Source: Bacteroides uniformis (GTDB taxonomy: Bacteria > Bacillota_I > Bacilli_A > RFN20 > CAG-826). From it: DNA of 64,000 bases. The stretch spans positions 4,282 to 68,281 of the forward strand of contig CAVIBR010000008.1 in the NCBI GenBank assembly GCA_963641445.1, given 5' to 3'. The translations under genes and the position numbers were made by a program. Positions 8,571 through 58,087 of the stretch are shown here, one piece after another (the stretch's first letter is position 1; each line of letters opens with the position of its first letter). The notes beneath the pieces were generated by a model, which did no database searches, had not been told where the DNA came from, and worked only from the letters and a program-made list of their open reading frames with translations.

Positions 8571-8573
8571 AAT

Positions 8574-24987: not shown

Positions 24988-25045
24988 AAAAACATGAAAA
25001 ACTTGTATTTGGAAGCATCCAAAAACATGAAAAACTTGTATTTGG
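24988..25045. repeat. 25 bp direct repeat x2 (aaaaacatgaaaaacttgtatttgg) in the upstream region of the ATPase pseudogene
   Basis: Seen directly. Confidence 0.8.
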
Positions 25046-25146: not shown

Positions 25147-25191
25147 GAAAAGACCCTACTGTTGGCAGTCCAACATTCGGGTCTCACTTCA
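25147..25191 (+). repeat. 45 bp hairpin element, copy A (agaccc ... gggtct stem, 22 nt loop)
   Basis: 43 of 45 nt are identical to the reverse complement of 57785..57829. Confidence 0.75.
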
Positions 25192-25599
25192 GAAGTAGCA
25201 GATGATATAGGTTAAGATGAACTTGATTATTGGGATATAGAGTTTTTTCTTGCTTGTGACATTCAAATCTAAAACAACTAGCATGAAGGTATATAAGCCA
25301 ATTGAGATGAAGAACATCCAATTAGAAATTTCGTTGAAATACAAAGTGTATGCTTGCGTGAAATCCATATATTTTGATTTTATACGTACATATCATTTAA
25401 AAACAATGCGAAAAAAAGAAAGAAAAGAGTTCGTTTATGGGAGTTTGAAATTAATATCGATTTCAGAAATATGTTTGTTATGAAATAAAAACAAATGGCA
25501 AGAATATCGGATATTTCAAGATCATTTGCTTAATTTAAGTGGTTTTTGTGGGGATATTTTGATTTTGAAAGATTATTATTTAACTGATTTTTTAGATTA

Positions 25600-25655
25600 C
25601 TTCAATAACACTTCAATAGTTACTTCAACAACACTTCAATAAAGTGGTGACCTGA
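25600..25655. repeat. Short tandem repeat, roughly 12 bp (acacttcaata), about 4 copies
   Basis: Seen directly. Confidence 0.6.
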
Positions 25656-26948
25656 TTTCAATAGGAGAATCATTAGAATTTATAAGATTTAGAAATTACG
25701 TTTGGCAGAAATAAAAAAGCAATATCTTTCATCCCCTTTATTTCAACATGATTGTTGTTTTAAAAGGGATTTGGCGGTGATATTGCGTTTTTGTAATGGA
25801 TCTATTTACGTTTTGACATTCTTCGCTTAGCTCCCATTGTCTATCATTACGTGGAGTTTTGGAACCGCTCGTGGAATTGCACCACAAACTACCTTACTTA
25901 GACGGCCATAAGTGACGTGCGGAAGAGTTATAGAGGTCTTAACTATCTCTTGCTTCGGGTTTCATTATGGAGGGGTGAATAAGTCCCATAGAATTTTTGA
26001 GTCTTAACAAAGACTTATTTCTCATGCTGCGTATACTTACAACTTTGCCAACGCATGTTAGTTTTATCGAGTTTGCCTTCTCTAGATTATTAAGCCCAAA
26101 TAATCATGGGAGTCGCTACGTGATCATCTTTACCCTACATCTTTTTTAAGATGTAAGAGGAAGTGCGAGCACGAGCAATTTTCTAGGCATTGCTAATCGC
26201 CATCGGAGTTACTAACTAGTGGTTCCTTAATTTAACCGATACTATACCCGCTTCGATTAATAGCGAATGCTTCTACCCTATCGGAGTTGAACCGATACTC
26301 TACCTATTTAGGCATGCTTTACCATGAGTGTTGCTCTTAAGCTAAGGGAACGCGTATTTCTATAGCGCATCAGCTAGCGGCTTGTAGGTATCTTTTCATA
26401 AGTAAAAACATTTGTCAAATGGTGGTGTTTGCTTACCTTTATTAACTATCTAATCATCTATTTAATACAAAATATTAATGTAGTTAATAAAGGTAAAAAA
26501 ATGTGTTCAAAAAGAAAGGGGTTTTGATAGGCTTTTTTGAATATTTGAATTTTATATGCCTAACAAATGCATAGGGAAATAATATGCTTTTTCATTAATT
26601 GGACGAATTTTATCCGTGCAATCAATAACTAAGCCAGGCTTAATGTCTTTTTCCCTATTTGCCAAGAACATTTTGCCTTTGTTAGAACTGAAATTTTATG
26701 AAAATGCCACCTTAAGTCTAAAATTCATCAATTTTTAAATAGATACTCGCTAAAAAAGTTGGCTTGGCATCGATATAAAAAGACTTTTTTTGATTAAATG
26801 ACTAATCGACTAGCAATTTAATCGCAATTTTGATTTTTGGCTATGAATTTAGATCGTTATTTATGTTTTCTTTTTCTATCTATTTCATCTGACTTTTAAA
26901 GGAATATTCCGTTCGATATAATGTTTCTAGCGAAGGAAATAAACATAT

Positions 26949-27944
26949 ATGTATAAAGCGAATGATAAGAGATATTCTAAAATGCAATATTCAAAGTGCG
27001 GAAGAAGCGGGCTGTATTTACCTAAAATAGCTTTAGGATTTTGGCATAATTTCGGAGAACTAAGCGATTATAAAACGATGAAGGAAATCGTTTTTACGGC
27101 TTTTGATAATGGAATAACTTATTTCGATCTTGCTAACAATTACGGTCCAGAAGCAGGAGCGGCAGAAGAAAATCTAGGAAGAATCTTAAGTACTGATCTA
27201 AAGCCTTATCGTGATGAATTGATTATTTCAACAAAAGCAGGGTTCTATATGTGGGATGGCCCTTACGGAGATGGTGGAAGTAGGAAATACCTTATGGCTT
27301 CAATTGATCAATCATTAAAAAGATTAGGCTTACCATATGTTGATATTTTCTATCACCATAGGATGGATAAGGATACTCCACTAGAAGAAAGCATGCTTGC
27401 TCTTGCTGATATTGTAAGGCAAGGAAAAGCTTTATATATCGGTCTTTCTAACTATGATGCACCAACATTAAGGGAAGCAAGTAAGATTCTGAATGATCTT
27501 CATGTTCCGTTCATCGTGAATCAAAGTTGTTACAACATGCTAGATAGAACATATATGAATAATGGATTGATAGATACATCCTTAAAGTTAGGGCAAGGAA
27601 ACGTTGTTTTCTCTCCTTTAGCACAAGGATTATTAACCGATAGATATCTAAATGGTATTCCGGAAGACTCTAGAGTAAGACGTGATCCACGTTTCCTAAA
27701 TGAGTCTAGATTAACGGATGAATTATTAGCAAAACTTAGAGCATTAAACGATATCGCTAAAGAAAGAGATGAAAAGTTAGCGGATATGGCTCTTGAATGG
27801 ATATTGAAAGATAACAAGGTTACATCTTGCATTATTGGCGCTAGTAAGAAAGAACAAATTCTTATCAATTGCAGAGCCATCGAAGGAAAAGATTTTACTT
27901 CCGAGCAGTTAAAACGTATTGATGAAATTGTTTTAGGGAAGTAG
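26949..27944 (+). CDS. Aldo/keto reductase, YghZ (AKR14, L-glyceraldehyde-3-phosphate reductase)-like
   Basis: The N-terminus MYKANDKRYSKMQYSKCGRSGLYLPKIALGFWHNFG is colinear with E. coli YghZ as I remember it. It also has DLANNYGP and IISTKAG. Confidence 0.85.
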   Translation: MYKANDKRYSKMQYSKCGRSGLYLPKIALGFWHNFGELSDYKTMKEIVFTAFDNGITYFDLANNYGPEAGAAEENLGRILSTDLKPYRDELIISTKAGFYMWDGPYGDGGSRKYLMASIDQSLKRLGLPYVDIFYHHRMDKDTPLEESMLALADIVRQGKALYIGLSNYDAPTLREASKILNDLHVPFIVNQSCYNMLDRTYMNNGLIDTSLKLGQGNVVFSPLAQGLLTDRYLNGIPEDSRVRRDPRFLNESRLTDELLAKLRALNDIAKERDEKLADMALEWILKDNKVTSCIIGASKKEQILINCRAIEGKDFTSEQLKRIDEIVLGK

Positions 27945-28083
27945 AAGATCTTTTAGCGCTTAATATATAAGAAATTGACTAACAAGAATTTTTAGATATC
28001 AAAAATCAAGGTATTTTTGTCTTCGAAAAAGGGTAATAAATTAAAAAAACATAGAAAACATCTAACTTCTTAAAAAATACAAT

Positions 28084-28180
28084 CTCCGATTTTTATTCCT
28101 TTTTTGAGAAAACGATACCCCGATTTTATTCCTTTTTTTGAAAATCGATGTCCGGTTTTTATTCCTTTTTGCTTTAAGTT
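28084..28180. repeat. About 33 bp tandem repeat x3 (ccgatttttattcctttttt...)
   Basis: Seen directly upstream of 28284. Confidence 0.7.
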
Positions 28181-28283
28181 GACTAAAAGCAATGCATCTT
28201 TAGAAATAAACAAAATCTTTTATTAAAAGTTATAATTGAGGGAAAGAAAGTATAATTGCTTTATTACAAAGGAACGGTTAAAA

Positions 28284-28919: not shown

Positions 28920-28993
28920 ATTGATTTTTCATCCAATTTAAACTACTTTTCTTAGTTCTTTTTTATACATGTTTTTTGATAAAAATTATTTCA

Positions 28994-29110
28994 GGGCGAA
29001 AAAGCATAAAAAATATACGATTTCGCCCTAAAAAGCAATTGACTTGAGATATACGGCTTTTAAAATATATTATATAGAGCGAAAAACACTAAATTTTATA
29101 CGATTTCGCC
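28994..29110 (+). repeat. Two copies of hairpin family 1 ([ag]gcgaaaa - 19 nt loop - tttcgc[ct]); the second abuts the RBS of the ATPase gene
   Basis: Copies at 28994-29030 and 29077-29110. Confidence 0.8.
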
Positions 29111-29120
29111 GGAGAATATT

Positions 29121-30542: not shown

Positions 30543-30580
30543 AAGATATTTCATTTATTTCCTTTATATATCAATAAACT

Positions 30581-30615
30581 AGAGCGAAAAACACTATAAT
30601 TGATACGATTTCGCT
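30581..30615 (+). repeat. Hairpin family 1, downstream copy
   Basis: agagcgaaaaacactataattgatacgatttcgct. Confidence 0.8.
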
Positions 30616-31031
30616 TTAGCTTATTTTCTATTGACATAATTATCTATATGAATGAGGGGTTTGTTTTCGCTTTCTAATAGATAATTAATATCCTATTTAT
30701 ATACAAAGATATAGATAACTAAATAATGGATATTCATAATTTTTTTGATCTATACGCAAAAGATACTGGAGTAAACATTTTTTATATAAAATGAAACTAC
30801 TGTAATCTCCATTCTTACAAAAAGTCCCTATTTTCCTAGGTTTCCTATTTATATAAAGATATTTATAGGATTACAAGAAAACAAAATATGTTTCATATAA
30901 AAATAGTAAAAGTAACAAAAATATAAAAAATATTACATTTTCTCTTGCAATGGTTACAAAAGGGTGTATTATATAGCCAAGAGATACAAAGCAGTTGAAC
31001 TTGTAACTCTTAGAAAAGTGAGGCAAAACTT

Positions 31032-32687: not shown

Positions 32688-32704
32688 GCACTAAGCAGAG
32701 TCTT

Positions 32705-32741
32705 AGAGGAACTAAAGAGAAATCTTAGTTCCTCTTTTTTG
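32705..32741 (+). terminator. Rho-independent terminator
   Basis: agaggaactaa-agagaaatc-ttagttcctct + tttttt. Confidence 0.75.
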
Positions 32742-33095
32742 TGCTAGAAAATCCAAATATCATATGCAAAACCCATCTAAAACTTCATTTCTAGAAATAT
32801 TAAATTCTTTTTGAACGTTACATAAATAATGTTACAAACGTCAATATGATATTATTCGCATCTCTAGCAAAAAGATGCTTAGCAATACGTATTTTTCTTC
32901 CTCTTGTATCTTAAGGATGAACCAATCTTAGAGAAATATCTAAATTAATGATGAAAATAGGAACAAATGTTCGATTAGATATGGGTCTCACTTAGACATC
33001 CTTAAGAATATAAGATTATTCTGGGAGGTGTTCGATATTAGAAATAAGAGAATTAGAAAGAAGAATACGAGTCTAGAAATTAAGGAGGAAAAAGA

Positions 33096-33728
33096 ATGAG
33101 TGTTGTTGTGGCGATAAAAGAAAATGGAAAGGTTTATATGGGTTGCGATTCCCAAGTTACTTGTGGAACGACCAAAAGCACTCTAAGCAATCCTAACAAC
33201 TTTAAGATGTGGAAAGTCAAAGGAGTTGATAATTGCCTTATGGCAAGCGTTGGGGACGTAAGAAATGCTTGCGTGATAAGAACAATAGAAGATCTTGTTA
33301 CCGAATACGATGCCTATAAAGGACGTATTTGTTATGAGTTTGTTGTGAATAGGATTCTTCCTACAATCATTGAACGTCTTCAAGATGCTAATTATCTAAA
33401 AAGAGATGAAGTCTTTAGAGATTTAGGCTCAAGCATCTTGTTTGCCTATAAAGATCAGCTATATGAGATCTGTTACGATGGGTCGGTGTTTGAAATTGAT
33501 GGCTGCGTAGCGCTTGGAAGTGGAATGAAACAAGCTCTTGGAAGCATGATTGAAAGAGAAGGGGAAGATCCAAAAACAAGGATCGTCAAAGCAATCAAAT
33601 CAAGCATGTCTGATATCTATGTCGATTATCCGATAATCTTATCTGATACGGAAACAACAGAATTTAATATAATCGCTAAGGAAAACGAAACAGATTACCT
33701 TAAATCCATCGAAGGTCAAACTAGATGA
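33096..33728 (+). CDS. HslV-like / proteasome-beta-like Ntn hydrolase (peptidase T1 family)
   Basis: MSVVVAIKENGKVYMGCDSQVTCG compares to HslV [23 protein letters not shown], and CVALGSGMKQALG to AIGSGGPYAQAA. The predicted N-terminal nucleophile is Ser2 rather than Thr. Strong RBS. Confidence 0.6.
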   Translation: MSVVVAIKENGKVYMGCDSQVTCGTTKSTLSNPNNFKMWKVKGVDNCLMASVGDVRNACVIRTIEDLVTEYDAYKGRICYEFVVNRILPTIIERLQDANYLKRDEVFRDLGSSILFAYKDQLYEICYDGSVFEIDGCVALGSGMKQALGSMIEREGEDPKTRIVKAIKSSMSDIYVDYPIILSDTETTEFNIIAKENETDYLKSIEGQTR

Positions 33729-33855
33729 AGTTCTTAGGACATATTTTATCTGGCTTGTCCTAGTTTCTTTAGGATATGTCATTTGCTATTTTGGTTGGTT
33801 AAATACGCTAATTAGATGGATTGAAAATTTAGACCATTAATTAAGGAGAATTTGA

Positions 33856-35148
33856 ATGGAAAAATATACTTTAGATAATTTTGGTGGATATGAAGAAGAA
33901 AAGATTGAAGCGGAGAAAATAATCAATTTCTTAAAAAATTATGATTATTACGTCTCACAAGGGGCGTATCTTCCTAAAGGGATGCTCATATACGGTCAAC
34001 CAGGAACAGGAAAGACGATGTTATCGAAGATCATCTCTAGCGAAGCAAACGTTCCTCTTGTCACTCTAGATTTGAAGAATTCTGCTAACTTCAATTTGAT
34101 TGACGCGATAAATAAGGTCTTTGATCAAGCGCTTAGCAAGACTCCATCCGTCTTATTGCTTGATGAGATTGATCAAACCGTTAAGATGAGAAGATACGGT
34201 GATGCGACCGATAGAGAGAATGATGTTCTTAGAACATTGCTAACAAGAATTGATGGAATCAATACCTCTGATGGGGTATTTATCATTGCAACATCAAACG
34301 TTTCCTCGGTTGAAGAATGTGACCAAGCCTTAACTAGACAAGGAAGAATTGAAAAATACATCAGCCTACATTTACCGAATATCGATGAAAGAAAAGAAAT
34401 TCTAAAAATCTATCTCAATAAGAATCACATATTCGATGATGTCAATGTTGCTACACTTGCTAAACGTACAAAAGGGTTTAGTGGATCATCAATTAAATCC
34501 TTGATCAATTCCGTCTTGATATGGGCCTTAAATGAGAAAGTGGATAATGTTTCTACAGATGATTTCTATCAATATATCCAGCAAATATCTCATCGTGGAA
34601 TCAATAAGAAAAAGACTTCTGATACGGATTTAAAGGCTACGGCATATCATGAATTAGGACATTTCATCTGTGACTATATTCTAAATAAGAATATTGGAAC
34701 AATATCAATTGAAACATATGGTGAGACCGCTGGAGCATATAGACGCGTTCAAGACGAAGAAAGAGAAAATACTAGCTATACAGCCTTAAAGAATGAAATT
34801 ACTGTTGCCTTAGGAGGACTTGCTGCAGTTGAAGTGTATCTAGGAGAAAAATACACTGGAGCAGCAAGCGATATCAAAAAGGCTAGAGGCATATATGAAG
34901 AAATGCTTGATAATGGGATGCTCGGCCTAGATAGACTAAATGAAGCACCATTAAGATTGAGGTCAATTGCTGTACTTAGCTTATCTGAGGAATACCTATC
35001 TAGAGAAGGAAAATTCATGACTGAATGTTATCAGGCTGCAACGAACATTATTAAAGAAAACAAAGAAATAATTGATAAGCTCTATCCAATCTTAGTTAAG
35101 AATAAAATCATCTTCGAATCTAAGATTAATGAGATATTGAAGAAGTAG
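33856..35148 (+). CDS. Soluble FtsH-like AAA+ ATPase with M41 metallopeptidase domain (no TM or periplasmic region)
   Basis: Walker A GQPGTGKT, Walker B LLLDEID, second region of homology ATSNVSSVEECDQALTRQGRIEKYI. M41 zinc motif TAYHELGHF plus a TGAASDIKKAR block like FtsH TGASNDIKVAT. Confidence 0.75.
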   Translation: MEKYTLDNFGGYEEEKIEAEKIINFLKNYDYYVSQGAYLPKGMLIYGQPGTGKTMLSKIISSEANVPLVTLDLKNSANFNLIDAINKVFDQALSKTPSVLLLDEIDQTVKMRRYGDATDRENDVLRTLLTRIDGINTSDGVFIIATSNVSSVEECDQALTRQGRIEKYISLHLPNIDERKEILKIYLNKNHIFDDVNVATLAKRTKGFSGSSIKSLINSVLIWALNEKVDNVSTDDFYQYIQQISHRGINKKKTSDTDLKATAYHELGHFICDYILNKNIGTISIETYGETAGAYRRVQDEERENTSYTALKNEITVALGGLAAVEVYLGEKYTGAASDIKKARGIYEEMLDNGMLGLDRLNEAPLRLRSIAVLSLSEEYLSREGKFMTECYQAATNIIKENKEIIDKLYPILVKNKIIFESKINEILKK

Positions 35149-35519: not shown

Positions 35520-35640
35520 TTTTGGCGGAAAGTGTCAAAAAAAATTGAGTTTCCGCCAAAAATGTTTAGAATTTTTTCTTATTTTTATGATAAGATAATT
35601 GGCGGAAAGTACTAAAAAAATTGAGTTTCCGCCAAAAATG
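35520..35640 (+). repeat. Two copies of hairpin family 2 (ttttggcggaaa - 18 nt loop - tttccgccaaaa); the second abuts the RBS
   Basis: Copies at 35520-35564 and 35598-35640. Confidence 0.8.
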
Positions 35641-35652
35641 GAGGTTTAAAGT

Positions 35653-37071: not shown

Positions 37072-37091
37072 ATTGTAGCTTTTTAATTATT

Positions 37092-37134
37092 TTTGGCGGA
37101 AAGTGCCTAAAAAATTGAGTTTCCGCCAAAAATG
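37092..37134 (+). repeat. Hairpin family 2, downstream copy
   Basis: ttttggcggaaagtgcctaaaaaattgagtttccgccaaaaatg. Confidence 0.8.
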
Positions 37135-38376: not shown

Positions 38377-38447
38377 AATCATTTCTTAAAATTCAAATAT
38401 TGCATGCAAAACCCCTTTCTTTTCATGGAAAGGGGTGATTTTAGTTC

Positions 38448-48583: not shown

Positions 48584-51007
48584 ATGAAAAAAAGAACGTT
48601 AACGATCCTTCTAATTATTCCGTTTGTAATTTCTTTGATGACTTTTGCCTCTATCAAGATTCTTGATAACCAAGTCGCAGTAGATATTCTTGGCATTGAA
48701 TGGGATTATGATGAGAATGAAGGCTTCCAAATTGATAGCAATAATGGTTATGAGCTTAAAGCAAAGCCAATCATTGATCCAAATCTCATTTTAGCAAAAG
48801 GAAATGACCTCGTTTGGTCTTTGAAAAAGATCAATGAGACTGATGAAGATTTTGCCTCAATTGAAGAAAAAGATGGGAAATTCTATTTATATGCCCTCAA
48901 AAAAGGTGAGGTTGAAGTAGTTTGCTCAAACGAAAGAGGGAGCAAATCTAAGTATTTCACGGCGACAATATTTGAAGACGGAGCGATGGTTATCAATCCA
49001 AAACGCAAAGGCAGTGGATCGTCTCTTTCTTCACTTAAATATTACGGCTTATATGATTTTAATGAAGGCAAGAAGACTCTTTCGTCTTTTGAAATAACGT
49101 CTACATCTTATTTAGACAATGGAAAAAAGAGTGAAGAGAATCGTTTAGTTGATTCATCTAATAACGTTTCTTATTCAAATGGAAAGGTATCTCTTCTTTC
49201 TCCAGGTGAGGCATATCTTACCCTTGAAGAACCGACATATCGTTATCGTTCAACATATAAATTCAATGTAGTAGACGGAGTTAATGTTTATTCTTATTCA
49301 GATCTTCTTTTGGGAACAAATAAATCGCAAGATGGAGAAAATATCGTTTTACAAGTTAACCTTGAATCTTTGAAAAATACTTATTCATATGATACTGAAA
49401 CAAATAAATATATTGATACAAAGCTATCTTCTAGCGAAGGCAATACAGAATTATTTGGAAACTTTGATTTTACTAGCCAAAGATTCTCTTTCGATGAGGA
49501 ATATTACACGTTTACCACGACATACGATTCGACATATATCGATCAATACAACAAAGAGAAGAATGCATCAGTTAAGAAAGATGTTATTGCAGGTATTCAT
49601 TTAAGAAAGAACCTCTATGGAAATGGCTTTACCATCAATATGAATGGACTTTGTTATCCAAATCATGGCGAGATAGATAAATTCACTGGTAAAAGAGTTC
49701 CAAAAAAGAAGGATGAAGCGGCAGGCGGAGCATATGACTATTTCTATGGCCCATTACCATTCGTTTCCGTTGGAGATATGGTTTCTTTCCCACTTGTTAC
49801 TGCCTTAGGACAAGATAATTCTGGCATCTATATTGATGATGACAACGTCACATTAAACGATGTTAAGTTATCTAATTGTGATGAAGTGGATAATCTTTAC
49901 AATCTTTCTTATACGGGATCAATAATCGACATCAAAGGAAAGAACGTGACTATTTCTAATTCTATTCTTTCTAATGCGAAAGTATGTGTTAGAGCCTATG
50001 ATAGCGATAATCTTTTGATTGATAATTCAATCCTCAAGAATTCAGGCGATTTCACTCTCTTATTAGGCAGCGATAAGAAAGATTCGTATGATACAAATAG
50101 AAGAATCCAAGATTACGGCCTTGATATGTCTTATTCTGATTTCTTTGATAACGTTGATGAAAATAGGCAAGATACTGCAAACGGAGTATTAAATTCCTTC
50201 CTTAATGCGACAATGAATGGAACCCTAAAAGAAGGAGATTACAAGACTAAATTAGAACTTATCCAGAAATATCTTGATAACGATAAGAACGCTAAAAACT
50301 TTGTTGCGAATATCACCGTGAAAGATTCTTTCTTTGGAAGAAGTGGAGTCTTCTCAATTGCCTTTGAATCTATCTTTAATGGAGCGTTGCTCTATGGAAA
50401 GATCCCAACGATGATAACGAAGTTACTAGGCAGTTATCTTAACGCGCCATTGCCGGAGAAGTTAGGCGGAACCTCCTCCCCAGTTCATCTTACTTTAGAA
50501 GGAGATACAAGATTCTATGACTGGAAAGATGTCGATACAATCGATGTTTCTTCCCTTATCGAAGAAAACATTTCAAGAACGCTTAACCAAATGGGATATG
50601 GCGATAAGAATGTTACAATCGATGATATATTCCCAATGAAATCTGCTTTAAAGAAAGAAGCAGCTTCTAAGAACTTAGTGTATTCAAAAGATGGAAAGTC
50701 TTATTTGAATACTTCAATTGCCTATTATGGCGGGGGATTGAATAACTCCGTTATCGATATTAAGTCTGATTTGGCCTACAATACCTATAGCGATGAAACG
50801 GAAGTCTCCTTGCTTGATGAGACGATTGAAAATAATAAAGGCGGAGGCTATTCTTCCTTATTTGTCGATTGTGTTATCGTTACCATTGGCACTCATCCAT
50901 TTAGATTCATCACAAATGGAGAAAAAGAAAGTGATAATCCTATCTTATTTGATCAAGTTCCTTCCATTGAAGGATTAAAGAAACATTTGCAGGAGGCAAA
51001 AATATGA
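48584..51007 (+). CDS. Large secreted or surface protein with parallel beta-helix (pectin-lyase-fold) repeats
   Basis: N-terminal signal anchor. Repeated NxSIxxN-type rungs (NVTISNSILSNAKVCV...DNSILKNSGDF). Confidence 0.55.
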   Translation: MKKRTLTILLIIPFVISLMTFASIKILDNQVAVDILGIEWDYDENEGFQIDSNNGYELKAKPIIDPNLILAKGNDLVWSLKKINETDEDFASIEEKDGKFYLYALKKGEVEVVCSNERGSKSKYFTATIFEDGAMVINPKRKGSGSSLSSLKYYGLYDFNEGKKTLSSFEITSTSYLDNGKKSEENRLVDSSNNVSYSNGKVSLLSPGEAYLTLEEPTYRYRSTYKFNVVDGVNVYSYSDLLLGTNKSQDGENIVLQVNLESLKNTYSYDTETNKYIDTKLSSSEGNTELFGNFDFTSQRFSFDEEYYTFTTTYDSTYIDQYNKEKNASVKKDVIAGIHLRKNLYGNGFTINMNGLCYPNHGEIDKFTGKRVPKKKDEAAGGAYDYFYGPLPFVSVGDMVSFPLVTALGQDNSGIYIDDDNVTLNDVKLSNCDEVDNLYNLSYTGSIIDIKGKNVTISNSILSNAKVCVRAYDSDNLLIDNSILKNSGDFTLLLGSDKKDSYDTNRRIQDYGLDMSYSDFFDNVDENRQDTANGVLNSFLNATMNGTLKEGDYKTKLELIQKYLDNDKNAKNFVANITVKDSFFGRSGVFSIAFESIFNGALLYGKIPTMITKLLGSYLNAPLPEKLGGTSSPVHLTLEGDTRFYDWKDVDTIDVSSLIEENISRTLNQMGYGDKNVTIDDIFPMKSALKKEAASKNLVYSKDGKSYLNTSIAYYGGGLNNSVIDIKSDLAYNTYSDETEVSLLDETIENNKGGGYSSLFVDCVIVTIGTHPFRFITNGEKESDNPILFDQVPSIEGLKKHLQEAKI

Positions 51008-52119
51008 AAAAGAATTTATTGACGAGAATAGGGTTGCTGTTTGCAGCATTCGCTCTTTCTTCCCCTTTAGCATCATGCACATTTTTTAGCAGTGGCGGAT
51101 CGCAAATATCTAATGTTATAACAACATACGACGATACGACCGGGAATACCGTTGTTACCATTACCTTTACTGATGATGAACTTTCTCCTGTAACCTTTAT
51201 TATTCCTCGCGGAATCTCCGGAAAAGATGGCGTTTCTATCAAAAACGTTACATCGAAATTATCTAGCGATGGAAATAGCATCGAACTTACTATTTCTTAT
51301 TCTGATAGCAGTGTTCAAGATACCGTTATTACCGTTCCTGTCCTTCAAGGAAGAGGCATTAAAGAAGTCCATGTTGATAAAGATGAAAATGGAAATCCAA
51401 CAATTCAATTTATCTATACTGACGGAACGCTTAGCCCAGTGATCACTATGCCAGCCGGAAAAGATGGAAAAGGAATTGAAAGCTTTGAGGTTTCTGACCC
51501 TGACACATCAGGAAGAATAACGATTGTTGTTAAATTTAGCGATGGCACATCAACAAGTTTTGAAGTCAAAAACGGTAAAGATGCAGTATCTATTGCCAAT
51601 ATCACTTATAACGAAGAGGAATCTGATGAAACTCATTACGTCTTAACTATCACCTATACGGATGGATATGAAGAAAATGTTTCTTTAGATCGCCCACGTA
51701 CCAATCGTTGGTTTACTGGATCGACATCTCCTGAAGAAGATAATAATCTTTCTGAAGCAACAGAAGGAGATTTCTATATCAACCGTGTTAATGGCTATCT
51801 CTATCAAAAAGGAAGCGATGGCAAATGGGCATTCCTTTTTAGCATGAAAGGCGATAGCTCAGCAAAAGATGATGTATATTATGATGTCATATTTGATCCT
51901 AAAGAAGGGAAGATAAAGAATTATCAAGGCATGTATGTTGTGCCTGTCCTTGAAGGAAAAACGATTGCGTTAGCAAACATTCCAACCCCAGAATATGAGA
52001 ACCACACATTCTTGGGCTGGTATACGGATTTAGATAACGTTAATGCAGGCAAGTTCACTGATTTAACGCCAGTCACGACGAATTTGCATTTATATGCAAA
52101 ATATTCGGTTAACGATTAG
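51004..52119 (+). CDS. Lipoprotein with four roughly 45 aa tandem repeats and a C-terminal Listeria-Bacteroides (Flg_new) type repeat
   Basis: Lipobox LASCT. Repeats of the form T..I.Y.DG....I..GKDG. C-terminal FLGWYTDLDN...LHLYAKY. Confidence 0.6.
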   Translation: MKKNLLTRIGLLFAAFALSSPLASCTFFSSGGSQISNVITTYDDTTGNTVVTITFTDDELSPVTFIIPRGISGKDGVSIKNVTSKLSSDGNSIELTISYSDSSVQDTVITVPVLQGRGIKEVHVDKDENGNPTIQFIYTDGTLSPVITMPAGKDGKGIESFEVSDPDTSGRITIVVKFSDGTSTSFEVKNGKDAVSIANITYNEEESDETHYVLTITYTDGYEENVSLDRPRTNRWFTGSTSPEEDNNLSEATEGDFYINRVNGYLYQKGSDGKWAFLFSMKGDSSAKDDVYYDVIFDPKEGKIKNYQGMYVVPVLEGKTIALANIPTPEYENHTFLGWYTDLDNVNAGKFTDLTPVTTNLHLYAKYSVND

Positions 52120-52127
52120 TAATATTT

Positions 52128-53090
52128 ATGTGTACGGCTGCATCATTTAAGAGTAAAGATACATATTTCGGGAGAAATCTCGATTATGAGTTTTCCTATG
52201 GCGAGAAAATTGCAATAACGCCTAGGAGATATCCATTTCATTGGAGACATATAGGAATTAATGACAACCATTATGCGATTATAGGCATGGCTCATATAGA
52301 TAATAGTTATCCGTTATATTATGATGCGATGAATGAATGCGGTTTAGGAATTGCAGGATTAAATTTCGTTGGGAATGCTTCGTATAATGAAATAGATTTT
52401 TCTAAGACAAACGTTGCTCAATTTGAATTCATTCCTTATATTCTTGTAACATGCAAAAATGTTGCTGAAGCAAGAGAAGTAATTAATAAAATCAATATAA
52501 CGAATACTCCATATAATCCTCATTTCCCTCCATCAAGCTTACATTATATTTTGAAAGATTCATCTTCATGTATTGTTGTAGAATTTCAAAAAGACGGGAC
52601 CCATATATATGAAAATGAAACTGGATGCCTTGCAAACAACCCTCCATTTAATTATCAATTGGAGGCGTTAAAGAAATATTCTTTCCTCTCAAACTCTGAA
52701 CCAAGAAAAGATTTCTCATTTGATGACACTTTCTATTCCAGAGGAATGGGCTCTTATGGCCTTCCAGGCGATTTATCGAGTCAAAGTAGATTCATCCGTG
52801 CGGTTTTTGCTAGCCATTTTTCGATTTCTGAAGAAGATGAAAGATCTTCAGTGAATCAATTCTTCCATATTTTGGAAACTACTTGTCAGACAAGAGGACT
52901 TTGCAAGATTAATGATAAATTTGAGATAACGATATATACCTCATGTATGAATCTGGAAAAAGGAATCTATTATTACAAGACGTACGATAATAGTGAGATT
53001 GATGGAATTAGTCTAAGAAAAGAAAATTTAGATTCCGATCATTTGATAACGTATGAACTATTAGAAGGTTCTTTGAATATAAGAAATTAG
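52128..53090 (+). CDS. Choloylglycine hydrolase / penicillin V acylase family Ntn amidase (linear amide C-N hydrolase)
   Basis: Nucleophile Cys2 (MCTAASF...GRNLDYEF). The N-terminal MCTA...NLD motif is consistent with the CBAH family as I remember it. Confidence 0.75.
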   Translation: MCTAASFKSKDTYFGRNLDYEFSYGEKIAITPRRYPFHWRHIGINDNHYAIIGMAHIDNSYPLYYDAMNECGLGIAGLNFVGNASYNEIDFSKTNVAQFEFIPYILVTCKNVAEAREVINKINITNTPYNPHFPPSSLHYILKDSSSCIVVEFQKDGTHIYENETGCLANNPPFNYQLEALKKYSFLSNSEPRKDFSFDDTFYSRGMGSYGLPGDLSSQSRFIRAVFASHFSISEEDERSSVNQFFHILETTCQTRGLCKINDKFEITIYTSCMNLEKGIYYYKTYDNSEIDGISLRKENLDSDHLITYELLEGSLNIRN

Positions 53091-53116
53091 GTTTTTTGAT
53101 AAGCAAAATCTTTATA

Positions 53117-53157
53117 TTTCCCTAAAAGTAGTATTTTTCACCAAGTTTTAGGGAATT
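53117..53157 (-). repeat. Hairpin family 3 (ttccctaaaa - 20 nt loop - ttttagggaa), copy downstream of the minus-strand ATPase gene
   Basis: atttccctaaaagtagtatttttcaccaagttttagggaat. Confidence 0.8.
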
Positions 53158-53164
53158 ATAACTA

Positions 53165-54592
53165 TTAGAGGAATAAGTCTTCTCCGATAATTTCCTTTTG
53201 AATTACATCGGAATGAGAATTCTCTTTCAAACCGTTATTAGTAATCATCGTTAACACCAATTGTTCATTTGGTTTAACTTCATTTGCAAAGACTTGTATT
53301 TTGTGAAGAAGATTCTCTTCATAATCTTTTGTTATTTCATATTTGCCAATGGAATGTTTGATTTCACATACGTTTATGATCATGTCTCTTCTATGAATCA
53401 ATAAATCGATTTGAGCGCCAGGATCTGATTTTTTGCTTTTCCAGGAATATTCTTTTGTCATTACTCCTGATATCCCTAAAGCATTTTTAATCGAAGATAT
53501 ATTGTTTAGGCAAAGAATTTCAAAAGCATGTCCTGCCCAAGCATAATATGCAGGCGTATTTATGAATGATAGCCAATTGTCGAAAGAGGGTGAGATGAGA
53601 AAAGTTTTAGCAAACAAAGTGAATGGATCAATTAATTGGTAGAACTTATTGTTTTTTGCCGTGTTATAGTTTTCATAGGCTCTTACAAAACCACACTCGG
53701 ATAATTCTTCTAAAGCAGTAGTTAAGGATTTTCCATCACCTATAGATGAAATCGAAGCAAGTTCTTTTCTTTGCATACCCATGCTTTTCTTCATCAATGC
53801 TTCGATTATTTCTCTATGTTTCCCTTTTGCGTTGAATAGAGACCTAAACAAAGCCTGATATTCGTCATGCAACTGACCACTTTCTTTGAAACATAAATTA
53901 TCGATATTTTGAGCTAAGCTCATTTCTGAATCTAATAAATCCCAATAATATGGGATTCCGCCAAAAACCATGTAAGTTTCAATTATTTGGCTTTTTGTAT
54001 AATGCAATTTCAATTGCTCGCTATATAAAAGACATTCTTTCAATGAGAAAGGCATTAGATGTATTTTTCTTGTCAAACGATTATAAAAACCGCCAGTATC
54101 TTTGACCATGTTGTTCATAATCCAAGATGTAGCAGAACCACATACAATGAAGACTAAGTCGTTTTGCATTGAACCATAGGTATTCCAGAATGAATCTAAG
54201 CCTGCTTTAAAATCGCTTCTTTTCCCATCCATCCACGGTAATTCATCTAAGAATACAATTCTTTTCTTATAAATTGGATCACGATAAACGTTATCGCTTT
54301 CTAAGAATTTCTTTAGAAGCCTAAAAGCGTCAAGCCAATCCTTTGGCTCAGAGCCATCTTCAATCTTATAGCTATAATCAACCAAGGCATTGGTGAAATT
54401 CTTTAGTTGAAAAGCATTGTTTTTGTTATTTATGCCACTGGCATAGAAAGAGAACTTGTTGTTAAAGAACTTTTTAATAAGATATGTTTTGCCGACTCTT
54501 CGTCTTCCGTATAAAACCAAGAATTCTGGTTTAGAAGATTTTAGGCAAGATAGAAGTTCTTTTTGCTCATCAACACGACCGATTAAGTTCAT
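53165..54592 (-). CDS. ATPase of a second family (Arch_ATPase/DUF234-like), paralog 3
   Basis: MNLIGRVDEQKELLSCL...LYGRRRVGKTYLI. Same architecture as 29121 and 35653. Confidence 0.8.
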   Translation of the reverse strand: MNLIGRVDEQKELLSCLKSSKPEFLVLYGRRRVGKTYLIKKFFNNKFSFYASGINNKNNAFQLKNFTNALVDYSYKIEDGSEPKDWLDAFRLLKKFLESDNVYRDPIYKKRIVFLDELPWMDGKRSDFKAGLDSFWNTYGSMQNDLVFIVCGSATSWIMNNMVKDTGGFYNRLTRKIHLMPFSLKECLLYSEQLKLHYTKSQIIETYMVFGGIPYYWDLLDSEMSLAQNIDNLCFKESGQLHDEYQALFRSLFNAKGKHREIIEALMKKSMGMQRKELASISSIGDGKSLTTALEELSECGFVRAYENYNTAKNNKFYQLIDPFTLFAKTFLISPSFDNWLSFINTPAYYAWAGHAFEILCLNNISSIKNALGISGVMTKEYSWKSKKSDPGAQIDLLIHRRDMIINVCEIKHSIGKYEITKDYEENLLHKIQVFANEVKPNEQLVLTMITNNGLKENSHSDVIQKEIIGEDLFL

Positions 54593-54604
54593 ATAAAGCC
54601 TCCT

Positions 54605-54729
54605 ATTTCCCTAAAAGTTGTGGATTTTGATAAGTTTTAGGGAATTATAGATATATTATAGACTACTTTTTGAACTTATAAATAGTTATATTTCCCTAAA
54701 AGTTGTGTTTTCTAATAAGTTTTAGGTAA
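54605..54729 (-). repeat. Two copies of hairpin family 3 upstream of the minus-strand ATPase gene; the proximal one abuts the RBS
   Basis: Copies at 54605-54645 and 54689-54729. Confidence 0.8.
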
Positions 54730-54774
54730 TTATTAATTTTTGGAAGAGCTGTTTTTAAAATTAGAATATGAAAT

Positions 54775-57573
54775 TTATCTCCCTCTTGTTGGAGTATTTC
54801 TAGCAAGTACGATAAAGCTCTCTGCATGACTTGTTGGATTCTCTTTGAATGGATGGAAGAAGAGGCAGTAGCCATTTCCAGCATCTCTTCTTACCCAGGA
54901 ATTCCCGCTCATCGATTTTACAAAATCAGCTGTCAATCCCTCGTCGATTTTAATCCAGTGAGGATTGAAAAGGTTGGATTCAAGGAGTTCTTCACGTTTA
55001 TGGGAATTAAGATATTCTTGGAATATTGCATCGCCTTTCATGAAACGAATATATCCGTCTTTACATTCGATGATGCCAATTCCAACACGGCCAAATTCCA
55101 TAGATAGATCTAATGTTTTGCTATCTAATGACGCGCTTGTTAAGGAAAGAGATTCTAATTCCTTATAATATTGAATTTCCTTTTTGCTATGTGGCAAATA
55201 TTCTTTCTTTGTTTCTAGGAAGGAATATATTTCATCTGCTGGCAATGGTTTTGATATTAAATAGCCTTGTATATACTCGCATCCAATATTTTTAATAAAG
55301 GTGTATTCCTCAATGGTTTCGACTCCTTCCATAAGAGTTCCTATTGATAGTTTCATTCCCATTTCGATGATGCTATCGATGATCGCACGGCCTTTGTCTC
55401 TATTGGAGCCTTTAGGAAGGAATTTCATATCAAGTTTGATGACATCAAAGGAGAATTCCTTTAAAAGATTCAAAGAAGAATATTCAGAGCCAAAGTCATC
55501 CATCCAAATCTTAAATGAAGCGTCTTGTAATTTCTTGACAGCTTTCTTAAGAATCTCTTTTTCAGTAAGGAAGGTGCTTTCGGTTATTTCTAGGATAATT
55601 AAATCATGTGGAATGGAATATTTATCAACGATTTCAATGATTGTTTCGACAATATCATCTCTTTCAAAATCAAAACGTGAAAGATTGATTGAAGTTGGCA
55701 AAGGAGAGATTCCTTTCTTTAGGAGAATCGAATCTTTCTTGCATACTTCTTCAAGAACATATAAATCCAATTTAGATATCAAACGGTTTCCTTCCAAAAC
55801 GGAGATGAAATCGCTAGGAGGAATCAAACCTTTTGAAGGATGTTTCCATCTAGCTAACGCTTCAAGACTAGATATAGAAGAAGAAACGGTTTGGAGAATT
55901 GGCTGATAATAAACGACGATTTCATGATTTTCGATAGCAGAAGAAAAAGAAGTAAGTATCCATTGGGATATCTTGTTCTTTCTAGCCATCTTATCATCAT
56001 AATAATGATAATTTTCTTCAGGTTTTTCTTTGATGTAATCGCAAGCTATTTTGGCTAAGTCATTTCCTTGACGGATATTCATATCTTCTTTTAATAAAGC
56101 ACATCCGGCAATGATTCTTACGGCAGCATTCTTGCTAAAGGCCATGAATTCATCTTCGACTTTTTTAAAAGAAGCAGCAAAATCTTTCTCTTCACAAACC
56201 AAGGAAAAATGATCGTCGACAATTCTTGAAATCAAGCTTAATGGGAAATATTTCTTTAAGAGTTCTGCAACTTTTAGTAGTAATGAATCGCCATATTCAT
56301 AGCCAAGAGTGCTATTGAAGACTTTGAAGTTCAAAATGTTAATATGGCAAATAAGGATGTCTTTCTTCTCTTTTAACTCCTCTAGATAACGTTGACCATT
56401 TTGAAGATAACTTTGGAAAGTCATTAATTTAGTTAATGAATCGATGTTGTTAGAGGCTTTGCCTTCTCTCATGAATTCGTTTTTGTATGAATTTTTCATG
56501 AAGGCTTTTTGACAAATGACATTCTTTCCTTCGCTCTTAGCGTTATACAAAGTGAAATCAGCGGAATTGATCATCTCTTGGAATTCTTGTTCTGTTTTGA
56601 CATTCCCATAGACAAATCCAGCTGAAAATGTTGGATGTAACATGAATGTTTCTGAGATTTGAAGATTCTTAAGATCATTCATCGTTTTCTCTAGAAGTTC
56701 TTTGAAACGATAGGCATTTGAACCAGGATAAGCGATAAGGAATTCATCCCCGCCATAGTTAAAGCAAGAATCCGCGCCGAAATTTAAAATAAGAATATCG
56801 CCTAAGTCTCTTAAGATAATATCTCCGACATTATGACCATACATGTCATTGAAGAACTTGAAATCATCAATATCAATCATGCAAACGATCATGTCTTTAT
56901 TTAAGAAATCCTTGCTGTTTTTCTTTAAGGCATATCTATTCTTTAAGCCTGTTACTTCATGATGTTCACTTTTTTCGCGAACGGAAACATAGTTTTCAAG
57001 ATTGCTAAAACGAAGACTAAGAATAAGAAGAATAGCGCTTATGATCGCAGAATACGTGACTAAAAGGTGAACGGAGTCGATAGCGAATGTCTCTAATGAT
57101 TTGCTGAAATAATCTACGACAAGGAAGATAAGACAATAAACCGTTTGAATGGAAATGACTCTTAAAGGCAAATCAAAAACGAATAAAGGAAGAATGAATG
57201 ACAATATATAGAATGAGAAAGCATAGGAATCGCCGATATAGATACATCCATTTAAGATAGCAATGATAAAGGTTGGAATCTGAATGATATATAAGGTTGG
57301 AAGAATCCATTTAGAAGGAATCTCTTTTATGACTTTAGGCATTATGAGTAAAAGAAGAAGAGCATAGATTGTTCCAGTAAGAGAAAAAGAGAATAAAAGG
57401 ATGTTTTTCTCTAAAGCAATTCTCGAAATCATAACCGCTGTTTGGGTTATGAAATTTGCTATAAGAAAAAAGATGCATGATTTCCTGTTCTCTTGTTGAA
57501 TGTCACTCTTATAGAGGTAGTAGTCTCTTTTTCCGCGTAAGAGAACGATGTGCTTAAACAATCGAGATTTCAT
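54775..57573 (-). CDS. Membrane c-di-GMP signalling protein: polytopic N-terminus, GGDEF, a degenerate second GGDEF-like region, EAL, and an unassigned C-terminal domain
   Basis: GGDEF (NYGGDEFLIAY). EAL (LEALARW, DDFGSEYSSLNLL). The exact start is uncertain. Confidence 0.75.
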   Translation of the reverse strand: MKSRLFKHIVLLRGKRDYYLYKSDIQQENRKSCIFFLIANFITQTAVMISRIALEKNILLFSFSLTGTIYALLLLLIMPKVIKEIPSKWILPTLYIIQIPTFIIAILNGCIYIGDSYAFSFYILSFILPLFVFDLPLRVISIQTVYCLIFLVVDYFSKSLETFAIDSVHLLVTYSAIISAILLILSLRFSNLENYVSVREKSEHHEVTGLKNRYALKKNSKDFLNKDMIVCMIDIDDFKFFNDMYGHNVGDIILRDLGDILILNFGADSCFNYGGDEFLIAYPGSNAYRFKELLEKTMNDLKNLQISETFMLHPTFSAGFVYGNVKTEQEFQEMINSADFTLYNAKSEGKNVICQKAFMKNSYKNEFMREGKASNNIDSLTKLMTFQSYLQNGQRYLEELKEKKDILICHINILNFKVFNSTLGYEYGDSLLLKVAELLKKYFPLSLISRIVDDHFSLVCEEKDFAASFKKVEDEFMAFSKNAAVRIIAGCALLKEDMNIRQGNDLAKIACDYIKEKPEENYHYYDDKMARKNKISQWILTSFSSAIENHEIVVYYQPILQTVSSSISSLEALARWKHPSKGLIPPSDFISVLEGNRLISKLDLYVLEEVCKKDSILLKKGISPLPTSINLSRFDFERDDIVETIIEIVDKYSIPHDLIILEITESTFLTEKEILKKAVKKLQDASFKIWMDDFGSEYSSLNLLKEFSFDVIKLDMKFLPKGSNRDKGRAIIDSIIEMGMKLSIGTLMEGVETIEEYTFIKNIGCEYIQGYLISKPLPADEIYSFLETKKEYLPHSKKEIQYYKELESLSLTSASLDSKTLDLSMEFGRVGIGIIECKDGYIRFMKGDAIFQEYLNSHKREELLESNLFNPHWIKIDEGLTADFVKSMSGNSWVRRDAGNGYCLFFHPFKENPTSHAESFIVLARNTPTRGR

Positions 57574-57784
57574 AATAGTCTTGCAATTTTAAGTAAAGTC
57601 GCAAAAGAAGGAAATAAAATAATCTTTGCCTAATGAATGATTATCATTTCCAAGCTGTTTTATGTGACCGAATATATTCTAATATATTTCTCTACCAAAT
57701 TGTTAGATTATAAAGGAAATTCTTCATTTTCTTTATGCGGTAAACGAAAGAGAAAGAGCGATATCTTTTGAAAATATAGGGGTT

Positions 57785-57829
57785 TGAAGTGAGACCCGAA
57801 TGTTGGACTGCCGACAGGAGGGTCTTTTC
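57785..57829 (-). repeat. 45 bp hairpin element, copy B (inverted relative to copy A at 25147..25191)
   Basis: 43 of 45 nt match the reverse complement. Confidence 0.75.
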
Positions 57830-58086: not shown

Positions 58087-58087
58087 A

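Follow-up and report, generated by a model that had tools for sequence, protein, structure and literature searches.

Inverted 45-bp hairpins 32.6 kb apart are probably independent members of a small dispersed palindromic repeat family

The window analyzed here, a 64-kb stretch of DNA, contains two near-identical 45-bp hairpin elements in inverted orientation, separated by 32.6 kb. Copy 1 sits 197 nt upstream of an AAA_14/PDC-S01 ATPase gene (23888–24949, minus strand) and ∼520 nt downstream of a terminator belonging to a conserved non-coding region. Copy 2 is 211 nt from the ATG of a divergent GGDEF-EAL gene (54775–57573, minus strand) and directly adjoins a truncated toxin fragment. The two copies share the sense in which they face an accessory gene: for copy 1 this is the minus-strand PDC-S01 ATPase gene, and for copy 2 it is the plus-strand toxin remnant, accompanied by its immunity gene. 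The elements and the genes at copy 2 are as follows:

25147..25191, minus strand: copy 1 of the palindromic repeat; stable strand UGAAGUGAGACCCGAAUGUUGGACUGCCAACAGUAGGGUCUUUUC, then GUUUUUAUUAUU
57785..57829, plus strand: copy 2 of the palindromic repeat; 43/45 identical to copy 1, the terminator-like strand being the plus strand
57835..58098, plus strand: polymorphic-toxin gene, 5′-truncated C-terminal domain, an orphan fragment homologous to the L017 toxin
58088..58435, plus strand: DUF7674 gene, presumed immunity partner of the truncated toxin (PF24722, E = 3.7e-17; same pair in L017)

On the plus strand, positions 25147–25191 read GAAAAGACCCTACTGTTGGCAGTCCAACATTCGGGTCTCACTTCA, and the counterpart at 57785–57829, read on the minus strand, differs by two mismatches (A>C and T>C), which confirms the 43/45 identity reported in the original prediction; a scan of all 64 kb at ≤3 mismatches returned these two copies and no other, and 100 dinucleotide shuffles gave 0 matches. 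Identity between the copies ends abruptly at the same base on either side of the 45-mer, where unrelated flanks begin. The element is an imperfect palindrome from end to end that folds into a two-tier hairpin, with a 7-bp stem, a 3×3 internal loop, a 6-bp stem (TGTTGG/CCAACA), and a 4-nt loop; what had been described as a loop of about 20–22 nt is therefore not a loop, as it holds the second stem. The arms GAGACCCGAATGTTGG and AAGACCCTACTGTTGG form terminal inverted repeats that match at 12/16 positions. The calculated folding energy of copy 1 is −21.4 kcal/mol on the minus strand (z = −3.3) versus −17.2 on the plus strand, and that of copy 2 is −23.6 kcal/mol on the plus strand (z = −3.8) versus −15.6 on the other. 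The stable strand carries UUUUC directly after the hairpin (the U-tract is UUUUCGUUUUU or UUUUCAAAA in the window copies and UUUUCUUAUAU in the gut copies described below), and it is on this strand that wobble pairs form (G17-U52 in all copies, U30-G39 in copy 2) where the other strand has mismatches; the T>C change in copy 2 gives a U-G wobble on the plus strand and a C-A mismatch on the minus strand. The element occurs in only three sequence variants, with invariant stems and no covariation, and the stem has conserved flanks (TGAAGTG and CTTTTC), with 7 nt between the hairpin and a sharp end whose sequence is TTCA in every case. Native 3′ ends in the window look alike (for example, GGCGTTC-N12-GAACGCC, then TTTTCAA, after the P-type ATPase gene), and the 45-mer has no match in Rfam. 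An architecture shared with the hairpins that flank ATPase genes in the window had also been proposed; this holds for geometry but not for sequence or T-tract, those hairpins being direct repeats of other sequences without a T-tract.

One human-gut assembly (ENA ORPK01; contig coverage 4.4–5.0×) holds the repeat at unrelated loci, in four full-length copies that are 40/45 identical and in one half copy, in line with the earlier suggestion that the 45-mer could be one of many dispersed REP-like elements. The full copies share a 55-mer that terminates each contig: their flanks differ on the CACTTCA side, and on the GAAAAG (U-tract) side all four extend for at least 10 bases into a common sequence, TTATATGAGG, with a Shine-Dalgarno-like GAGG. 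In the gut assembly, the hairpin may not stand alone as a 45-bp unit but instead terminate a longer repeat. The half copy, at the other end of contig L019, consists of precisely the invariant 5′ arm TGAAGTGAGACCCAAATGTTGGAC, after which comes different sequence, possibly but not necessarily an IS, up to the end of the contig. All gut copies are at contig ends, the behavior expected of repeats that break assemblies. Their contexts include positions 24 nt past a tRNA-Thr, 36 nt past the stop codon of a lipoprotein gene, and downstream of plus-strand genes, as well as upstream of a pyrophosphatase gene and of a lipoprotein gene. All 7 known copies are intergenic; in this small sample, placement is compatible with a terminator in 4/7 copies and upstream of divergent gene starts in 3/7, and three copies lie 45–217 nt upstream of gene starts. 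The first base of Logan contig L014 falls inside copy 2, exactly 30 nt before the CACTTCA boundary. This distance equals k−1 for contigs built with k = 31 (PMC12424806), as a branch of the assembly graph at the edge of the repeat would give, and suggests a further copy in a near-identical strain. The pattern used for a scan of 185,579 reference genomes was too strict and would miss the gut variant.

The hairpin is absent from L004–L013, L015–L017, L022, and L023, and no orthologous position in ∼170 kb of related loci has it. The 45-mer is thus a discrete 45-bp unit with sharp ends, found at unrelated loci in at least two organisms and absent from the examined orthologous positions in relatives. 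The closest relative, L004, is without the hairpin and keeps an anchor outside the interval on the left (the end of an ASCH gene, window 8500–8606) as well as inside anchors at 25461–26502, at the aldo-keto reductase gene, and at about 32.8, 35.1, 37.25, and 38.3–38.5 kb, all in the same order and orientation as in the window. The site of copy 1 therefore shows no fixed inversion, L004 and the window being collinear across it. Compared with L004, variable defence-type cassettes are present on both sides of copy 1, and the view that the interval between the copies holds most of the accessory content is only partly true, “most” being too strong.

At the other end of the interval, the toxin fragment and the DUF7674 gene form a cassette that abuts copy 2. 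The frame of the fragment is open from 57793, and its first start codon is a GTG at 57958. The toxin domain is always at the extreme C-terminus in 1556 representative proteins (100–2300 aa), and the N-termini of proteins that carry it are Rhs-like and PT-TG-like. In the relative L017, an intact 155-aa toxin is paired with a DUF7674 gene, and nucleotide homology to L017 (86%) begins at 57835, 5 nt past the hairpin end at 57829; the lost 5′ part of the toxin gene was not found beside copy 1. Judged from the sequence, copy 2 is a genuine rearrangement junction, at which the toxin gene appears to have lost its 5′ part. A relation of the element to rearrangement, which the original prediction had raised, is therefore seen at copy 2, where the hairpin abuts the truncation point, but not as a fixed inversion at copy 1.

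Several known systems resemble the 45-mer in part. One is the pneumococcal SPRITE, an interspersed repeat resembling a terminator, for which neither a transposase nor a target-site duplication has been identified (PMC3049150). Like SPRITE, the 45-mer is a short interspersed intergenic repeat of a low-GC Gram-positive genome, in which a stem-loop is followed by a U-rich tract, with very short A/T-run terminal inverted repeats, a seemingly modest copy number, and some copies lying close to gene 3′ ends; unlike SPRITE, to which it has no sequence relationship, it is shorter (45 bp), has a two-tier stem with a 3×3 internal loop and a short U-tract (UUUUC), and is upstream of genes, not between convergent genes, in 3/7 copies. 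With REP elements and REPINs it shares the form of an imperfect palindrome of 20–45 nt dispersed in intergenic DNA. However, the GT[AG]G-type tetranucleotide is absent from its stem foot (no GTAG, GTGG, or CTAC), no close inverted doublets of the REPIN kind were seen, the window has no RAYT gene or Y1/HUH transposase, and its host is apparently a low-GC Firmicute or Mollicute-like organism of the gut, not a proteobacterium. REP elements are mobilized by RAYT (TnpA-REP) transposases, whose genes they usually flank; they can serve as terminators or RNA stabilizers and are a known substrate for rearrangement. MITEs (RUP, Correia/NEMIS, bcr1) are likewise non-autonomous, with sharp boundaries and unrelated flanks, and the arms of the 45-mer could be terminal inverted repeats placed head to head; in contrast to MITEs, 45 bp is below the usual size, no parental IS with matching ends was found in the window, and no target-site duplication is visible (no direct repeat surrounds either window copy, and the gut copies are readable on the CACTTCA-side flank only). 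Finally, the subterminal hairpins of IS200/IS605 elements are also imperfect and lie a few bases from the element end, as the gut hairpin may lie at the very end of a longer repeat, and the left-end hairpin of IS200 also acts as a terminator that blocks incoming transcription. Here, however, the end lacks a conserved target tetranucleotide next to it, the sequences examined contain no tnpA/tnpB, and the window copies are free 45-bp units.

One alternative treats the inverted pair as the recombination sites, or as the terminal inverted repeats, of a single 32.6-kb invertible or transposable segment. The copies are indeed inverted, with the same ends facing outward around the interval, as are the pairs of near-identical short sites used in DNA inversion (hix/gix; RecV-, Fim-, and Mpi-type), and the toxin gene truncation coincides with the outer end of copy 2. 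In L015, moreover, the aldo-keto reductase and GGDEF-EAL genes are adjacent on the same strand, whereas 27 kb separates them in the window, where they converge; therefore, some inversion has occurred in the neighborhood. Against this, the L015 arrangement requires a breakpoint just downstream of the reductase gene (27945–28235), where there is no copy, and the adjacency was not seen in two other relatives. When the main ORFs of ≥80 aa in the 64 kb (about 45 proteins) were scanned against Pfam, no recombinase of the serine or tyrosine type, integrase, or transposase came up, the interval is about ten times the size of a typical switch, and contigs L002/L003 and L014 contain only the window arrangement, the other orientation not being seen. 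The synteny and GC-skew comparison proposed for detecting an inversion or island likewise speaks against one: skew is positive both inside (0.055) and outside (0.091) the interval, with no reversal, and L004, without copy 1, is collinear across its position. With no visible target-site duplication and with family members at unrelated housekeeping loci elsewhere, we consider a single 32.6-kb segment very unlikely, and the proposal of an invertible or mobilizable segment or of former island boundaries finds no footing in these data. The interval was also rejected as an island or composite transposon: its GC content is not distinct, its inside anchors are shared with L004 and collinear with the outside anchor, and the missing 5′ portion of the toxin gene does not adjoin copy 1. 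The 32.6 kb between the copies is thus probably not a unit, their inverted orientation being incidental to two independent members of a dispersed repeat family.

A doubtful but more plausible alternative is that the hairpin bounds or terminates a longer mobile unit, either IS-like or a gene cassette with the hairpin in front, for which it would be an end or recombination site while also keeping incoming transcription out of the cassette; the two copies in the window would then be solo or minimal derivatives marking the 5′ edges of the PDC-S01 ATPase and toxin remnant-immunity cassettes. The extension of 4/4 gut copies into TTATATGAGG, where the contigs break, the retention of exactly the 5′ arm by the L019 half copy, and the shared sense in which both window copies face an accessory gene argue for such a unit, as does the precise gain or loss of the nearby PDC-S27 ATPase genes between hairpin direct repeats (L004 versus the window). 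Yet the window copies lose identity at the same base on both sides, as expected of a free 45-bp unit and not of a relic shortened at random; the sequences that follow the U-tract in copy 1, in copy 2, and in the gut copies bear no relation to one another; neither a transposase or recombinase (in the window or the gut loci examined) nor a conserved target motif beside the end was found; and at 4–5× coverage one contig end could be a coverage gap. More speculative, and in our view improbable, is that the 45-bp hairpin and the PDC-S27-flanking hairpins are attC-like single-strand recombination sites of an undescribed cassette-exchange system that would build a defence-island-like region in low-GC gut bacteria, with the recombinase encoded elsewhere and each cassette (ATPase gene, or toxin remnant plus immunity gene) preceded by its own hairpin. 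The precise gain or loss of hairpin-bounded ATPase cassettes relative to L004 and the location of copy 2 exactly at a cassette edge fit such exchange. Integron attC sites (R''-L''...L'-R') differ in having GTTRRRY at the outer end, whereas GTTGGAC in the 45-mer is at the apical stem, and the window has no integrase. A cis-regulatory RNA element or protein-binding operator common to the adjacent genes would agree with the conserved palindrome and with the three copies 45–217 nt upstream of gene starts, but is highly improbable: the neighbors are unrelated (GGDEF-EAL, pyrophosphatase, lipoprotein, tRNA-Thr, ATPase), orthologues of the GGDEF-EAL, aldo-keto reductase, and toxin-immunity genes occur in relatives without the element, and Rfam holds no match. 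Least probable of all is a coding remnant, that is, a homology “handle” of a polymorphic-toxin gene usable for toxin-tip swapping. The element does read DPNVGLPT(G/V)GSF, recalling the Rhs DPxGL motif, in a frame that is open in both copies and, in copy 2, continuous with the toxin domain; however, an in-frame TGA lies just before the D codon in both copies, copy 1 has neither a toxin domain after it nor coding sequence before it, homology to the toxin family begins only past the element (query residues 11–13 onward), and the gut copies adjoin tRNA and housekeeping genes.

On balance, we favor the reading that the 45-mer is a member of a small dispersed family of self-complementary intergenic repeats of the REP, SPRITE, or minimal-MITE kind, probably acting as a terminator and lying at a rearrangement junction. 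When transcribed on its stable strand, it is predicted to act as a Rho-independent terminator or insulator. At the DNA level, an enzyme whose gene lies elsewhere in the genome may spread or shuffle the copies, or the copies may recombine with one another; either process would leave some of them at rearrangement junctions, such as copy 2 with the 5′ loss of the toxin gene. On this reading, the accessory cassettes that the two window copies precede are different ones, each on the strand of its copy.

Small palindromic repeats are common yet poorly catalogued beyond the proteobacteria and a few pathogens, and this family, which is not in Rfam, is new to the catalogue although its kind is already known. 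The pair of repeats alone gives no ground to annotate the 32.6-kb interval as an island or invertible segment. The repeat breaks short-read assemblies of gut organisms, which accounts for the contig ends in the gut assembly, and it also sits at a rearrangement junction that can be demonstrated in a region of defence and toxin-immunity genes, where, if it is a terminator, it would insulate newly juxtaposed cassettes from each other.

The original prediction that a near-identical 45-bp element occurs twice in the window in inverted orientation was borne out, and the pair is real and non-random. Copy 1, GAAAAGACCCTACTGTTGGCAGTCCAACATTCGGGTCTCACTTCA, lies at 25147-25191, and copy 2, at 57785-57829, is its reverse complement with two substitutions. 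A search of the window tolerating up to three mismatches returned just these two sites, against none in 100 shuffled sequences, and a repeat finder reported the pair as 45 nt of 96% complementarity. Identity between the copies is lost abruptly at both ends of the element, and the flanks are unrelated. A pattern suited to finding further copies of the 45-mer is TGAAGTGAGACCCRAATGTTGGAC. A separate window search for weaker or incomplete copies, and for further two-tier hairpins, brought up no member of the family.

In the folded 45-mer, an outer stem of 7 bp (GAGACCC/GGGUCUU) is separated by a 3x3 internal loop from an inner stem of 6 bp (UGUUGG/CCAACA), which carries a 4-nt loop. Three further pairs join the flanks, making the whole 45-mer an imperfect palindrome. 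The 20 nt first described as a loop thus hold the inner stem. Folding energies are −21.4 and −23.6 kcal/mol on the favoured (more stably folding) strand of the two copies, with z-scores of −3.3 and −3.8, versus −17.2 and −15.6 kcal/mol on the opposite strand, where two wobble pairs would be read as C-A mismatches; one of these wobble pairs is a T>C difference that separates copies 1 and 2. The favoured strand is the minus strand for copy 1, with the hairpin followed by UUUUCGUUUUU, and the plus strand for copy 2, with the hairpin followed by UUUUCAAAA. Native 3′ ends in the window resemble the element (GGCGTTC-N12-GAACGCC and then TTTTCAA after a P-type ATPase gene), and we infer that the 45-mer probably acts as a one-strand terminator or insulator. 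Only three variants are known, with invariant stems, too few for covariation to be informative, and Rfam gave no credible match, either for the whole window at gathering thresholds or for the two loci at permissive ones.

The genes closest to the two copies are as follows.

23888-24949, minus strand, AAA_14 ATPase gene (PADLOC candidate family PDC-S01)
54775-57573, minus strand, GGDEF-EAL gene
58088-58435, DUF7674 gene

Copy 1 sits in a 2-kb ORF-poor gap, 197 nt upstream of the AAA_14 gene, and copy 2 sits between the start of the GGDEF-EAL gene, 211 nt away, and the DUF7674 gene. A stop codon splits the AAA_14 gene (23609-24949 in full) into ORFs of 353 and 92 aa, probably reflecting a pseudogene or a sequencing error. 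The window as a whole looks like a defence-island-type mosaic, with PDC-S01 and PDC-S27 ATPases, a DpdE/DrmD-like SNF2 helicase with HNH and methyltransferase genes, an AAA_5 and DUF2357 pair, an IetA-like AAA protease, and Fic, Macro and Schlafen/AlbA genes. A "protease pair" at 33096-35148 comprises a proteasome-like protein and an IetA-like AAA/M41 protein (PADLOC IetA, E = 5e-31), and a long plus-strand operon at 40175-53090 carries the AAA_5 and DUF2357 (McrBC-like) pair, an ABC ATPase, beta-helix and Listeria-Bacteroides-repeat proteins, and a choloylglycine hydrolase. Exact-protein look-ups of the DUF7674 and GGDEF-EAL proteins and a 46-aa ORF found nothing on record. Gene-specific tandem direct repeats (two to three units of 11-34 bp, at 5024-5092, 8571-8636, 23489-23590, 24988-25045 and 28066-28170) adjoin, upstream or downstream, the AAA_14-DUF4143 (PDC-S01) genes and a 227-aa gene at 28236, and may be operators or iterons.

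Copy 2 coincides with a genuine junction and marks the truncation of a toxin gene. The reading frame leaving the element stays open to 58098 and encodes an 86-residue domain (consensus ...KLKNxIxELYRPGAxIGDGGxADAIRHELxTGELVGGKSHIxKG...) that 1556 representative proteins of 100-2300 aa carry at their extreme C-terminus. Rhs-like or PT-TG-like N-termini in some of these mark it as a polymorphic-toxin C-terminal domain; others are short proteins. Neither Pfam nor NCBIfam has a model of it, and no structure has been solved. Together with the DUF7674 gene, it makes up an orphan module at 57793-58435, with a counterpart at 398-1209 of a related contig (L017), where an intact 155-aa toxin is followed by the DUF7674 gene. 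Nucleotide homology to L017 (86%, over 57835-58473) begins 5 nt past the end of the hairpin, so the toxin gene is without its first ∼70 codons, and the loss falls exactly at the start of the 45-mer. No part of the window, the surroundings of copy 1 included, contains the missing 5′ segment. We rejected as unlikely the idea that the 45-mer is a coding "handle" of the toxin.

The opposite side of copy 1 is occupied by a conserved non-coding region. Window positions 25461-26502 are free of ORFs, with ∼40% GC as against ∼27% in the flanks, and the core lies at ∼25700-26450 on the minus strand. The region is 81.5% conserved overall, and >90% in the core, in an equally intergenic stretch (1749-2786) of the closest relative, L004; 1-, 2- and 5-nt indels between the two show that it is not coding. 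A clear intrinsic terminator closes it on the minus strand: GCAATATC...GATATTGC and then UUUUUUAUUU, at ∼25712-25790. RNAalifold on the two sequences gave 169 pairs, 4 of them compensatory, 13 changed on one side and none broken, and Rfam had no match for the region, which is a candidate large (∼700 nt) structured RNA. The copy 1 hairpin was rejected as its terminator, since the region has its own ∼520 nt upstream.

Comparison with relatives bears on the suggestion that the two copies bound an invertible or mobilisable segment of 32.6 kb. L004, which is without the hairpin, has a reductase 93% identical to that of the window at the protein level and keeps the end of an ASCH gene outside copy 1 (window 8500-8606), the conserved non-coding region, the reductase gene and further pieces at ∼32.8, 35.1, 37.25 and 38.3-38.5 kb. 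All of these anchors have the same order and orientation as in the window, which means that copy 1 is not spanned by a fixed inversion; variable cassettes lie on both its flanks. GC skew is positive within the interval (0.055) and outside it (0.091 on each side), no target-site duplication flanks the interval, and Pfam scans of the main window ORFs of at least 80 aa found no transposase, integrase or invertase. With collinearity in L004, no reversal of skew, no recombinase and no target-site duplication, the segment was not borne out and we consider it very improbable; the 45-mer also did not pass tests as an island boundary or an inversion switch. A rearrangement did happen nearby: in a more distant relative (L015, 8831-12835), the aldo-keto reductase gene directly neighbours the GGDEF-EAL gene and shares its strand, whereas their window counterparts (26949-27944 and 54775-57573) are 27 kb apart and convergent. 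For that event, a breakpoint is required immediately downstream of the reductase gene, a position that holds no 45-mer. The adjacency is missing from two other relatives (L016 and L022), in which the GGDEF-EAL gene has other neighbours; the surroundings of that gene have thus been rearranged repeatedly.

A fourth short repeat family (AAAATNCAAATAT..GCAAAACCCC; direct at 7415-7441, 32748-32774 and 38388-38423, inverted at 26510-26545) lies at or beside the edges of L004-syntenic blocks, that is, at cassette junctions. Each ATPase_2 gene (PADLOC PDC-S27, E = 1.6e-183) is bracketed by gene-specific hairpin repeats, a pair immediately upstream and a single one immediately downstream, in direct orientation throughout, at the following window sites.

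28974-29120 and 30562-30625, first PDC-S27 locus
35523-35640 and 37093-37134, PDC-S27 locus
54592-54761 and 53103-53187, PDC-S27 locus

For the first locus, L004 has an "empty site" (12717-12880) with hairpin 1 and a single hybrid hairpin; the corresponding window arrangement, hairpin-hairpin-gene-hairpin, differs by 1505 bp. The left flank of the hybrid matches the window upstream of the gene and the right flank matches it downstream, so that the gain or loss of the gene with one hairpin (1505 bp) took place exactly from hairpin to hairpin, in the manner of a cassette.

Outside the window, a metagenome scan with only the outer stem and flanks fixed found four copies of the 45-mer, all in one human-gut assembly (ENA ORPK01), on contigs with 4.4-5.0x coverage.

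Gut copy, 24 nt past tRNA-Thr and 2.9 kb past a pyruvate formate-lyase gene
Gut copy, 36 nt past the stop of a lipoprotein gene
Gut copy, 45 nt upstream of inorganic pyrophosphatase
Gut copy, 217 nt upstream of a lipoprotein gene

These neighbours are ordinary chromosomal genes. The gut copies (GAAAAGACCCTCCTGTTGTTTGTCCAACATTTGGGTCTCACTTCA) are 40/45 identical to copy 1, and all five differences fall within the 22 positions left free by the search pattern, which fixed the outer stems and flanks; four are at unpaired positions and the fifth is in the loop-closing pair of the inner stem, a distribution that is not statistically significant. Every gut copy sits 9-10 nt from a contig end and reads on from CTTTTC into TTATATGAGG; the four share one 55-mer at this end and have four different flanks on the opposite side, the signature of a repeat breaking a k = 55 assembly. 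One of these contigs carries, at its opposite end, a half copy with the invariant 5′ arm followed by other sequence (TGAAGTGAGACCCAAATGTTGGAC-TTGCTTC). In a near-identical strain (98.6% identical to the window), a Logan contig starts exactly 30 nt before the CACTTCA boundary of copy 2, as expected from a graph branch at a repeat boundary, given that Logan graphs use k = 31 (PMC12424806). Copy 1 has only 28 bases in common at this contig start, and a further copy of the copy-2 variant thus probably exists in that strain.

Other searches were negative. A pattern fixing both stems, too strict on the inner stem, matched one chance palindrome in reference genomes (a Myxococcota MAG) and nothing in JGI/ENA metagenomes or viral contigs; scans of viral contigs with the outer stems, with the half element or with the half-copy junction also gave no matches. 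Plasmids and phages searched by BLAST with the 45-mer, or with the 1.85-kb region next to copy 1, yielded nothing relevant. The concatenated open-frame peptides of the 45-mer as a protein query had no match at E ≤ 10, a result that is uninformative because the known 73-aa ORF over copy 1 was missed as well. The hairpin is absent from ∼170 kb of related loci (L004-L013, L015-L017, L022 and L023) obtained via the aldo-keto reductase, GGDEF-EAL and toxin genes, so no neighbouring gene has it as a conserved regulatory element; an operator shared by the adjoining genes, an unlikely reading, was also rejected. Also rejected were a tRNA-derived att site (there is no tRNA in the window), an attC site, as which the element did not pass the test, and a dif/Xer site.

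According to the main rival, a longer mobile unit or cassette would have the hairpin as its end or as its recombination site. In all gut copies the same sequence follows, each window copy points into an accessory gene, and PDC-S27 gain or loss between direct hairpin repeats took place in the same region; we regard this reading as possible but doubtful. As regards an IS200/IS605 end, the hairpin is placed 7 nt from a sharp end that in all cases reads TTCA, and no conserved flank motif and no tnpA or tnpB gene turned up in the sequences compared. Best supported, and in our view somewhat probable, is a small dispersed palindromic repeat of the REP, SPRITE or MITE kind. The 45-mer lacks one defining REP feature, GT[AG]G at the stem foot, and has MITE-like arms but no target-site duplication. 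Functionally closest is SPRITE of S. pneumoniae, with no sequence relationship: a terminator-like interspersed repeat whose terminal repeats are only A/T tetranucleotides, for which no transposase is identified and a target-site duplication is not demonstrable (PMC3049150). The dispersed-repeat alternative in the original prediction is thus supported, with the addition that one copy marks the toxin-gene truncation. As a small dispersed repeat, the element would probably serve as a one-strand terminator or insulator located at rearrangement junctions, and the two window copies would be independent members of the family.
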